Of a stretch of 47,354 nucleotides of DNA, positions 8,744-9,517 are shown in pieces. Both the position numbers and the translations under genes were made by a program. Location of the stretch: positions 1 to 47,354 of the forward strand of contig CAWEDJ010000002.1 of the NCBI GenBank assembly GCA_963807635.1, written 5' to 3'. The notes under the pieces are model-generated. The model was given only the letters and a program-made list of their open reading frames with translations, did not search any database and was not told the DNA's origin. The number at the start of each line of letters is the position of its first letter. Position 1 is the stretch's first letter. Source of the stretch: an uncultured cyanobacterium (lineage in GTDB: Bacteria; Cyanobacteriota; Cyanobacteriia; Cyanobacteriales; Microcystaceae).

Positions 8744-8866
8744 ATCAGGATTATCAGAATTAGAGGATTAACAGGATTAGGAGGTTAAAAAATTAGATAA
8801 TTAGACAATTGGAGAAATAAATAATGCTATCTATCCTGAAAATTCTAAAATCTTCAAAATCCTGAT
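8744..8866. repeat. Imperfect inverted repeat (hairpin 1) of the GxxExxY-associated repeat family
   Basis: 34-nt arms ATCAGGATTATCAGAATTAGAGGATTAACAGGAT (8744-8777) and ATCCTGAAAATTCTAAAATCTTCAAAATCCTGAT (8833-8866). Confidence 0.85.
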
Positions 8867-8873
8867 ACAGACT

Positions 8874-8945
8874 ATGGGCATCGGCAACAAACTCACTTAC
8901 AAAACTCAATCAGGATTAACAGAATTAGAGGATGAACAGGATTAA
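8874..8945 (+). pseudogene. Duplicated 5' stub of the GxxExxY gene forming a 23-aa mini-ORF
   Basis: ATGGGCATCGGCAACAAACTCACTTACAAAA vs ATGAGCGTCGGCAACAAACTCACCTACAAAA at 9046 (28/31 identical); reads MGIGNKLTYKTQSGLTELEDEQD*. Confidence 0.75.
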
Positions 8946-9038
8946 GAGATGAGAAAATTAGACAATTAATAAATAATAAACTGGAGCAATAAATAATGCT
9001 AACCATCCTGAAAATCCTGAAATCCTAAAAATCCTGAT
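8909..9038. repeat. Imperfect inverted repeat (hairpin 2)
   Basis: Arms ATCAGGATTAACAGAATTAGAGGATGAACAGGAT (8909-8942) and ATCCTGAAAATCCTGAAATCCTAAAAATCCTGAT (9005-9038). Confidence 0.85.
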
Positions 9039-9045
9039 ACAGACT

Positions 9046-9438
9046 ATGAGCGTCGGCAACAAACTCACCTACAAAATTATCGGATGCGCGATGAAAGTTC
9101 ACAATAAAATGGGGCCAGGATTCCAAGAAGTTATCTACCAACGCTGCCTCGCCATTGAACTAGAGCGAGCAGGATTATCCTTTGCACGAGAAAAAGAACA
9201 GGTTGTCTATTATGATGGTATCCAAGTGGGGATACGCCGAGCAGATTTTGTTGTCGAAAATCAGATTGTCGTGGAACTAAAAGCAGTAGTGCAACTAGAA
9301 GATGTGCATTTAGCACAGGCAAAAAATTACACCGTCGCCTACAATTTTCCTTTGGGGTTGTTGATCAATTTTGGTGGGAAGAGTTTAGAGCGTAAGCTCC
9401 TGTTTAATCCGCGTCAGGAGCAGGATTCACAAAATTAA
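9046..9438 (+). CDS. GxxExxY protein (PD-(D/E)XK nuclease superfamily)
   Basis: GPGFQEVIY signature, RADFVVENQIVVELKAV, LGLLINFG; 130 aa. Confidence 0.95.
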   Translation: MSVGNKLTYKIIGCAMKVHNKMGPGFQEVIYQRCLAIELERAGLSFAREKEQVVYYDGIQVGIRRADFVVENQIVVELKAVVQLEDVHLAQAKNYTVAYNFPLGLLINFGGKSLERKLLFNPRQEQDSQN

Positions 9439-9517
9439 AGGATGGGCAGGATTAGAAAATGCTGTAGTCAATATCCATCGGACATCCTGAAAATTCTGAA
9501 ATCCTATAAATTGCAAT
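9419..9517. repeat. Degenerate inverted repeat (hairpin 3) overlapping the GxxExxY stop codon
   Basis: Arms AGCAGGATTCACAAAATTAAAGGATGGGCAGGAT (9419-9452) and ATCCTGAAAATTCTGAAATCCTATAAATTGCAAT (9484-9517). Confidence 0.75.

Follow-up and report, generated by a model that had tools for sequence, protein, structure and literature searches.

Between two toxin-complex (Tc)-like genes of an uncultured cyanobacterium of the family Microcystaceae, we found a block that is probably a hairpin-armed GxxExxY cassette, that is, a small selfish module in which an intact gene for a Cas4/RecB-like PD-(D/E)XK nuclease is combined with imperfect hairpins built of CAGGAT units. The block extends from position 8744 to about position 9511 of the 47,354-nucleotide (nt) stretch of DNA that was analyzed, here called the window, which is contig C2 of genome G000, an assembly of 4.03 Mb in 107 contigs. 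The region under study comprises positions 8744 to 9517. With its duplicated hairpins, the locus would be a typical member of a family of small-gene cassettes with hairpin arms, which is widespread and has seemingly not been described before. In the accessible portion of the source, GxxExxY (PDDEXK_3) is presented as a large family of unknown function with multiple transfers across bacterial divisions (PMC3424549). The passages retrieved from the literature under the names GxxExxY, PDDEXK_3, and PF13366 leave the flanks of the gene undescribed.

Gene and hairpins of the block

The GxxExxY gene (9046 to 9438, plus strand) is intact and encodes a protein of 130 amino acids (aa), which matched TIGR04256 with 134.4 bits (cut-off, 35; E value, 2.3e-39) and PF13366 with 129.3 bits (cut-off, 22; E value, 1.2e-37). 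In 33 aligned homologues, residues G23, G25, E28, Y31, E38, Y56, D67, E77, K79, H88, and Q91 were invariant and Y95 was nearly so. The invariant residues include the complete PD-(D/E)XK set and the GxxExxY motif (G25, E28, and Y31). A sequence search of the PDB with the protein gave no match below an E value of 0.99. An AlphaFold model of the 130-aa protein (predicted local distance difference test [pLDDT], 93.2; predicted template modeling score [pTM], 0.85) was structurally most similar to the Cas4 protein SSO0001 (4ic1; E value, 1e-4; template modeling score, 0.56). Further structural matches were the Cas4 protein Pcal_0546 (4r5q), the AdnAB nuclease domain, and lambda exonuclease, and the junction resolvase Hjc ranked lower (E value, 0.016). 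Judging from the model and the conserved residues, the GxxExxY protein is probably an active minimal nuclease of the RecB/Cas4 type.

The gene is preceded by two inverted repeats. Hairpin 1 (8744 to 8866) is formed by a left arm at 8744 to 8777 and a right arm at 8833 to 8866, which are separated by a 55-nt loop, and hairpin 2 (8909 to 9038) by a left arm at 8909 to 8942 and a right arm at 9005 to 9038, with a loop of 62 nt. In both hairpins the arms are 74% complementary, and left arm 1 pairs even better with right arm 2 (79%). An alignment of the six arms of the region revealed that each is an array of four 8- to 9-nt units with the core CAGGAT. The left arms have the form CAGGATTAN, and the right arms, when reverse-complemented, have the form CAGGATTTT; therefore, the cores pair and mismatches recur regularly in the spacers. 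Directly after both right arms, the sequence ACAGACT is followed by an ATG (at 8874 and 9046).

An earlier inspection of the letters alone, here referred to as the sequence-only reading, had already described these two inverted repeats, the composition of their arms (four subunits of approximately 9 nt of the AGGATT/AATCCT type with regularly spaced mismatches), and the distance of 7 nt between each hairpin and the next ATG, and all of this was borne out. Its third hairpin stood in part. The left arm of hairpin 3 (9421 to 9454) indeed covers the real stop codon of the gene (9436 to 9438), but the hairpin, which ends with a right arm at 9483 to 9511 and was recognized from direct-repeat families (80%), is degenerate: the repeat search of the region did not return it as an inverted pair, its RNA fold was no better than those of shuffled sequences (z scores of −1.6 and −2.0 on the plus and minus strands), and in the window its right arm has lost the outermost unit, which is still intact in the congener G004. 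The corresponding z scores were −2.7 and −2.3 for hairpin 1 and −5.4 and −5.1 for hairpin 2, the fold of which was matched in stability by none of 200 shuffles. The alternating order of three hairpins and two open reading frames (ORFs) that had been proposed was not upheld, as the first ORF (8874 to 8945, plus strand, 23 codons) is no gene. It is a stub, which shares no more than its first approximately 31 nt with the 5′ end of the GxxExxY gene before it runs into left arm 2. Hairpin 1 together with the stub represents a tandem copy of hairpin 2 together with the gene start (86 to 88% identity).

The concentration of unit cores in the region is exceptional for this genome. We counted 20 AGGAT/ATCCT cores in the 774 nt from 8744 to 9517, compared to 1.9 expected from the genome rate; in the noncoding part (399 nt), the count was 17 compared to 0.98 expected (Poisson probability, 8e-16). 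The region is the densest core cluster of the 4.03-Mb genome, in which the runner-up has 11 cores. A genome search with an nhmmer profile built from the arms recovered all six of them with E values between 1e-7 and 8e-4, and the next match had an E value of 0.27. The octamer GCGATCGC is present in 4738 copies across the assembly, which, together with the named relatives of its genes, points to a cyanobacterium.

Arms around GxxExxY genes of other genomes

The sequence-only reading had implied that other GxxExxY genes possess comparable flanks, and a survey agreed with it. Of 121 genomes of the order, 56 contain GxxExxY genes, with one to five matches each. For each locus, the best inverted match between the 150 nt upstream of the start and the 150 nt downstream of the stop was used as a bracket score, and 249 ORFs of at least 200 aa served as controls. 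Inverted arms around the gene exceeded the 99th percentile of the controls at 22 of 37 loci of the order; for one-sided local hairpins, this was the case at only 5 to 6 of the 37 loci. Furthermore, 80 loci of other species were sampled from 594 confirmed relatives across phyla, and 76 of them were usable. Here, 35 loci exceeded the 99th and 62 the 95th percentile of the controls, all of which come from the window's cyanobacterial genome and are therefore a limited standard for loci of other phyla. The common layout has one arm just ahead of the ATG and the inverted arm just past the stop codon, and most cyanobacterial copies have units such as CGCAGAGG or CGCAAAGG.

The proteins most similar to that of the window are non-cyanobacterial: two from Bacteroidota (76% and 75% identity), one from a Thiotrichaceae assembly (74%), and one from a Clostridia assembly (71%). 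Cyanobacterial relatives with 67 to 71% identity were found in Microcystis, in Dolichospermum, and in two genomes of the window's order (G008 and G042). The loci of all these proteins carry the same CAGGAT units and, in many cases, a base motif GTCTGAATC ... GATTCAGAC. At least four AGGAT/ATCCT cores within 200 nt were present at 17 of 20 loci with a protein identity of 64% or higher but at only 9 of 60 loci below 64%. In line with this, a quick maximum-likelihood tree of 115 proteins placed the window in a clade of 21 rows (Shimodaira-Hasegawa-like approximate likelihood ratio test, 91) that mixes Bacteroidota, Cyanobacteriota, Pseudomonadota, and Bacillota. Cores were detected in 19 of the 21 rows of this clade, compared to 11 of the 97 other loci counted. 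Because three Bacteroidota rows of the clade are located on contigs of 2.0 to 5.8 Mb, mis-binning does not explain the mixture of phyla. By these sequence comparisons, the gene and its arms are shown to travel together between phyla.

Loci with CAGGAT arms exhibit two layouts. In the first, the gene lies in the loop between a left and a right arm (for example, at L108, L111, L113, and L117); in the second, which is that of the window, of L119 (Microcystis), and of L115 (Thiotrichaceae), it lies between two hairpins. In DNA searches of other cyanobacteria, the arms showed 81 to 94% identity and the gene 65 to 72%, a comparison that is biased because short matches surface only at high identity.

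The arms could in principle act mainly in RNA. The hairpins would then mediate RNase III-type processing or stabilization of the small gene's mRNA within the Tc operon transcript, and their spread would be secondary. This would suit the co-orientation of the GxxExxY gene with both Tc neighbors, the position of the start codon 7 nt past one stem and of the stop codon inside the next, and a layout that copies ORF-bearing intervening sequences such as the Coxiella element discussed below. The mismatches, however, do not have the expected bias: in 22 bracketing repeats, 47 mismatches are G-U pairs in the sense RNA, a similar number (44) are G-U pairs only in the antisense RNA, and 98 are transversions. 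Moreover, the window hairpins fold equally well on both strands, the minus-strand folds being as stable as the plus-strand folds, and all possible orientations of GxxExxY genes and their neighbors are represented (15 times ++, 11 times +-, 6 times --, and 3 times -+). A permissive Rfam scan of positions 8500 to 9700 returned only a chance-level match (E value, 0.19) to an insect long noncoding RNA model and no rRNA match, and a promoter and terminator scan revealed four promoter-like sites and one terminator-like site, the same as in shuffled sequences. Since there is no sense-strand G-U bias, no difference between the strand folds, no preferred orientation, no RNA family, and no excess of promoters or terminators, constraint on a DNA repeat is favored, and we consider a primary function in RNA improbable.

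Spacer histories and arms with other cargo

Comparison with close relatives revealed how the spacer between the TcC-like and the TcA-like gene has changed. The congener G004 has the same insertion at the same place, with 91% identity from position 8744 onward. It differs from the window in three respects: 73 extra nt precede hairpin 1, the tandem hairpins are joined directly without a stub, and hairpin 3 is complete. The metagenome contig L187, whose TcA N-terminal piece is 93% identical to that of the window, has in the same spacer a nucleotidyltransferase (NTP_transf_2) gene and a HepT-like gene (114 to 783 of L187), i.e., a toxin-antitoxin pair of the MntA-HepT type. The homology between the window and L187 stops at position 8744, the first base of hairpin 1, which bounds the replaceable block on the left. 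From 9493 onward, within the right arm of hairpin 3, the two sequences are homologous again; L187 retains the last units of this arm, and the right limit of the block is at approximately 9492. In G004, the 73 extra nt correspond to the leader and the start of the L187 nucleotidyltransferase gene and represent a remnant of the beginning of the pair, and approximately 45 further nt on the left side are common to G004 and L187.

According to this comparison, the spacer holds differing small selfish modules, and the exchange concerned the block delimited by the hairpins. In the simplest succession, which is unrooted, most of the toxin-antitoxin pair would have given way to the nuclease block. The alignments show a module that was in the TcC-TcA spacer before this species and G004 diverged, and a hairpin unit that has since been tandemly duplicated in two ways, with the gene stub in the window and without it in G004. 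Joints in the metagenomes (8745>8909, 9038>8919, and 9048>8880) fit the G004-type arrangement, with its 73-nt extra segment, its stub-less duplication, and ATC after the start codon, and were not counted as further alleles. Among 401 genomes of the class, the 441-aa ORF downstream of the block matched, besides its own genome, only distant relatives (at most 43% identity).

A direct repeat of 19 nt (8663 to 8681 and 9528 to 9546; 17 of 19 positions identical) was considered as a target duplication and rejected. Its copies flank the whole insert, one just past the stop codon of the TcC-like gene and the other just ahead of the next gene start. About 0.1 such pairs are expected by chance, a rough estimate for AT-rich DNA, and the left copy is missing in G004. 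The repeat is probably due to chance or to a shared ribosome-site context.

The genes on both sides of the block belong to Tc-like stretches at 1107 to 8670 and 9553 to 16289. The last piece of the TcB/TcC-like gene (6250 to 8670, plus strand; Pfam RHS_repeat and NCBIfam Rhs_assc_core) comprises RHS repeats, the RHS core, and a variable C-terminal part. Downstream, the 441-aa ORF (9553 to 10878, plus strand) matches the N-terminal part of open frames of 2218 to 3366 aa in other cyanobacteria and is therefore regarded as a piece of a TcA-like gene. An ABC_toxin_N and a neuraminidase-like domain are located further downstream, in 11859 to 16289. Both Tc-like genes appear in fragments. Matches to TcdB mid-N/mid-C and RHS are spread over the ORFs 2758 to 4467, 4437 to 5468, 5375 to 5917, and 6250 to 8670, in differing frames, within the Tc region 1107 to 8670; the TcA-like gene is in at least three pieces (9553 to 10878, 10875 to 11519, and 11859 to 16289), while relatives have single frames of 2218 to 3366 aa. 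This fragmentation could reflect gene decay or an assembly error. In addition, the C-terminal part of the TcC-like gene (approximately 7662 to 8681) is unlike the corresponding sequence in G004 and in metagenome contigs, with both flanks 81 to 91% identical, which, as far as the alignments go, agrees with the exchange of variable tips that is common in RHS/TcC proteins.

A second spacer provided a series of alleles. In five genomes, a GxxExxY cassette is located between the same two tandem genes for flavodiiron proteins (flv-flv spacer). We extracted this junction from 30 genomes of the order (L058 to L087), in 27 of which both genes are present. The spacer ranges in length from 14 nt to 1216 nt. 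It is empty (14 nt) in L078 and L079; it contains a gene-less hairpin of 75 to 190 nt made of CGCA(A/G)AGG units in several genomes; it contains the full cassette in G471, G523, and G506 and also in G497 and on a second contig of G490; and it contains a decayed gene remnant in G060. In other cases, different genes (DUF559, YhcG nuclease, or PsiE) are found between other inverted repeats. The spacer is a hot spot that also harbors a GrpB-fragment gene and a HicB-like gene, with several of its cargoes lying between inverted repeats. Within one genus, the spacer is occupied in G471, and G055, G490, and G510 keep the arms together with the apparent first (ATGA) and last bases of the gene. Because apparent gene ends are kept between the arms, the gene-less flv-flv hairpins look like internal deletions of gene-bearing units. 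The stub of the window, by its sequence, also looks like the product of an internal deletion.

The genome of the window has a second GxxExxY copy (C22:28105-28572, L002), which has an in-frame TAA, lacks a start codon, and has its own 3′ hairpin of other units (z scores, −3.5 and −4.1). A stretch of 465 nt, which stops at the outer end of the 3′ hairpin, is shared at 91.6% identity with a copy in the congener G001 that sits in a different context, both flanks being unlike. Hairpin-only relatives were detected on C27 and C105. A clean empty site for the second cassette was sought and not accepted, since the flanks of the G001 copy map to C51 and C40 in the window's genome and the downstream gene differs.

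Arms of the CAGGAT type were also found without the gene or with another one. In G042, such arms enclose a nuclease gene of the Uma2 family, and nested hairpins of this type without a gene are present as well (L091). In G029, the CAGGAT hairpin is gene-less, and a segment of approximately 290 nt consisting of the 3′ end of a WD40-repeat gene and the hairpin is present three times in tandem (L010:860-2210). An IS200-type Y1 transposase gene lies approximately 220 nt past these gene-less hairpins. G029 and G006, each 99% complete, possess the arms, but a GxxExxY gene was detected in neither of them. Related architectures also surround a non-nuclease gene in the window's genome: inverted arrays of GGGGAGATTAG-type units lie on both sides of a gene of the four-helix-bundle family 23S_rRNA_IVP (C77:18995-19303), and a second gene of this family (C1:7714-8028) has a hairpin of GGATAAT units upstream only. 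The claim that the hairpin does not occur independently of the gene was hence upheld only in part. Because of the gene-less copies and the Uma2 cargo, the arms need no GxxExxY nuclease in cis, and perhaps they do not need it at all. As judged from these loci, the arms are a vehicle for differing small genes, many of which encode PD-(D/E)XK nucleases, and can persist without the GxxExxY gene.

These loci are what one would expect if the hairpins were autonomous repeats of the REP (repetitive extragenic palindromic) or MITE (miniature inverted-repeat transposable element) kind, spread by another enzyme or by host processes, with the GxxExxY gene as a mere passenger and its nuclease unrelated to the arms. 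The other unit arrays around 23S_rRNA_IVP, DUF559, YhcG, and PsiE genes, the many unrelated metagenome contigs that hold only the right arm (9004 to 9044), and the Y1 transposase gene in the vicinity of the L010 hairpins point in the same direction. An autonomous repeat would not, however, readily account for an arm type that tracks the GxxExxY clade across phyla or for the enrichment of brackets around GxxExxY genes relative to the control genes. Furthermore, the gene-less flv-flv hairpins appear to keep gene ends, as deletion derivatives would, with the window stub as a further case, and there is no Y1 transposase on the window's contig. On balance, we regard fully autonomous hairpins as rather unlikely.

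Several further observations, together with the gene-less, Uma2-bearing, and 23S_rRNA_IVP-bearing arms described above, weigh against the reading of the block as a mobile GxxExxY cassette. The inner bracket of the window (9005 to 9038 with 9421 to 9454) reached only about the 95th percentile of the controls. The arm profile detected no CAGGAT arms outside 8744 to 9517 in the 4.03-Mb genome, and because the arms are confined to one locus, there is no sign of current activity. The association of clade and arm type indicates co-inheritance and not specific recognition, because related loci share their labels. The sequence-only reading had named empty sites between tcBC and tcA in relatives as a check; among five congeners and metagenome relatives, no truly empty allele was found, the only other allele being that of L187 with its different cargo in the same spacer, and the Tc genes had no match in four of the five congeners. 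Likewise, in contigs (at 85% likeness) of four lake and runoff metagenomes, which can show neither excision nor its absence, there was no joint across the whole cassette. The notion of a mobile cassette inserted between operon genes stands as far as L187 and the cross-phylum relatives reveal a replaceable, horizontally travelling block with its limits at the hairpins; excision of the whole cassette was not seen at this site. Finally, inspection by eye, without a formal test, of the printed flanks of the flv-flv spacers and of close relatives revealed no consistent target-site duplication.

For the hairpin-armed cassette, which we continue to prefer, the following course of events is conceivable. 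The arms would be the cis-acting ends of the module, and recombination or repair at these structure-prone repeats would lead to gain, swap, duplication, and internal deletion, the last of which would generate gene-less hairpins. Tentatively, and with less than even confidence, we suggest by analogy that the encoded nuclease may recognize the cores of the repeated units on arms that are single-stranded or extruded and may make breaks there. Such an action on its own arms would parallel the Ssn nucleases, which cut hairpin repeats flanking their genes. A more general proposal, which we hold to be doubtful, is that GxxExxY proteins might be the maintenance or mobilizing nucleases of cross-phylum hairpin-ended mini-cassettes, including the ORF-bearing 23S rRNA intervening sequences, and that breaks at the 8- to 9-nt units might drive insertion, cargo exchange, and duplication in operon spacers.

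If the gene is mobile as a unit with its arms, a common explanation would be at hand for thousands of small "hypothetical" nuclease genes and for many intergenic hairpin repeats, and it would also cover the long unexplained origin of ORF-bearing rRNA intervening sequences. If, in addition, the breaks are made by the GxxExxY nuclease, this would represent a mechanism of DNA mobility without a transposase or a site-specific recombinase. At the locus studied here, the spacer between the toxin-complex genes proves to be a landing pad at which small selfish modules, such as a toxin-antitoxin pair and a nuclease cassette, replace one another.

Relation to known systems

The attC sites of integrons contain two pairs of core sites, R″-L″/L′-R′, with extrahelical bases. 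Integron cassettes resemble the block in that small genes, many of them without a promoter, alternate with structured imperfect palindromes and in that the cargo at one site varies among relatives. Accordingly, one may ask if the block is an integron-type cassette array whose hairpins are attC sites recombined by an IntI integrase. The order hairpin, stub, hairpin, gene, hairpin does resemble a cassette array, and the cargo at the site differs between close relatives. In contrast to integrons, there is no integrase in the block: the six Phage_integrase (PF00589) matches of the genome are all off contig C2. Also, there is no attI or Pc context, as the genes next to the block are TcC-like and TcA-like. 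The arms are direct arrays of four 9-nt CAGGAT units and not R″-L″/L′-R′ cores, and most relatives carry the gene inside two arms and not beside one hairpin. We therefore consider an integron origin extremely improbable. Membership in the integron or REP/RAYT systems, of whose logic the layout had been reminiscent in the sequence-only reading, was not supported, given that the contig carries neither a tyrosine recombinase nor a Y1 transposase and that the protein has a PD-(D/E)XK fold.

With REP/REPIN-RAYT systems, as outlined in the available part of their description (PMC3116915), the block shares a gene flanked by palindromic repeats, gene-less hairpin doublets that are dispersed in some genomes, and an intergenic location. 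Unlike a RAYT gene, the flanked gene has PDDEXK_3 as its only Pfam match and is not a Y1 HUH gene, the three PF01797 matches of the genome being on other contigs. The copy number is low, with six arms at one locus in 4.03 Mb, and the cargo between identical arms can vary, as exemplified by Uma2 and GxxExxY in G042. The block also differs from transposons with terminal inverted repeats and from MITEs, as it contains no transposase and, by eye, has no consistent target-site duplication.

The Ssn nucleases are a closer parallel. According to the portion of the report by Chenal et al. (2025, PMC11893778) at hand, both flanks of 42% of the ssnA homologues carry the repeat, and cleavage of the NTS/SRM repeat by its nuclease takes place in single-stranded DNA. 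In both cases, as far as that portion describes Ssn, a small nuclease gene has next to it, on one side or on both, a repeat that forms hairpins and also occurs elsewhere in genomes, and several phyla are concerned. The folds are different (GIY-YIG in Ssn, Cas4/RecB-like PD-(D/E)XK here), the arms described here are arrays of 8- to 9-nt units, and the window's genome lacks dispersed copies of its arm type; cleavage of the arms is thus proposed only by analogy to Ssn. If a minimal nuclease can read a short repeat in structured DNA, this would also be interesting for practical purposes, as is stated for the Ssn family in the same portion of that report.

In its anatomy, the hairpin-armed cassette is nearest to the ORF-bearing 23S rRNA intervening sequences. 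The helix-45 intervening sequence of Coxiella burnetii, which contains the S23p ORF, is described in the part of the source available (PMC4990558) as a selfish element of 428 nt with a terminal inverted-repeat stem of 28 bp, which is excised by RNase III; it has tandem heptamers just upstream of the ATG, the number of which varies among strains, and its ORF is decaying. The block of the window differs in being located in a spacer between protein genes and not in an rRNA gene (no rRNA match in 8500 to 9700), in its cargo, which is a PD-(D/E)XK nuclease and not a four-helix bundle, and in mismatches that bear no sign of selection on the sense RNA. What both have in common, as far as the intervening sequences are covered by that part of the source, is an ORF of approximately 120 to 130 codons inside terminal inverted repeats and direct repeats of 7 to 9 nt in variable number just upstream of the ATG. 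Both are likewise regarded as selfish, with an ORF that often decays.

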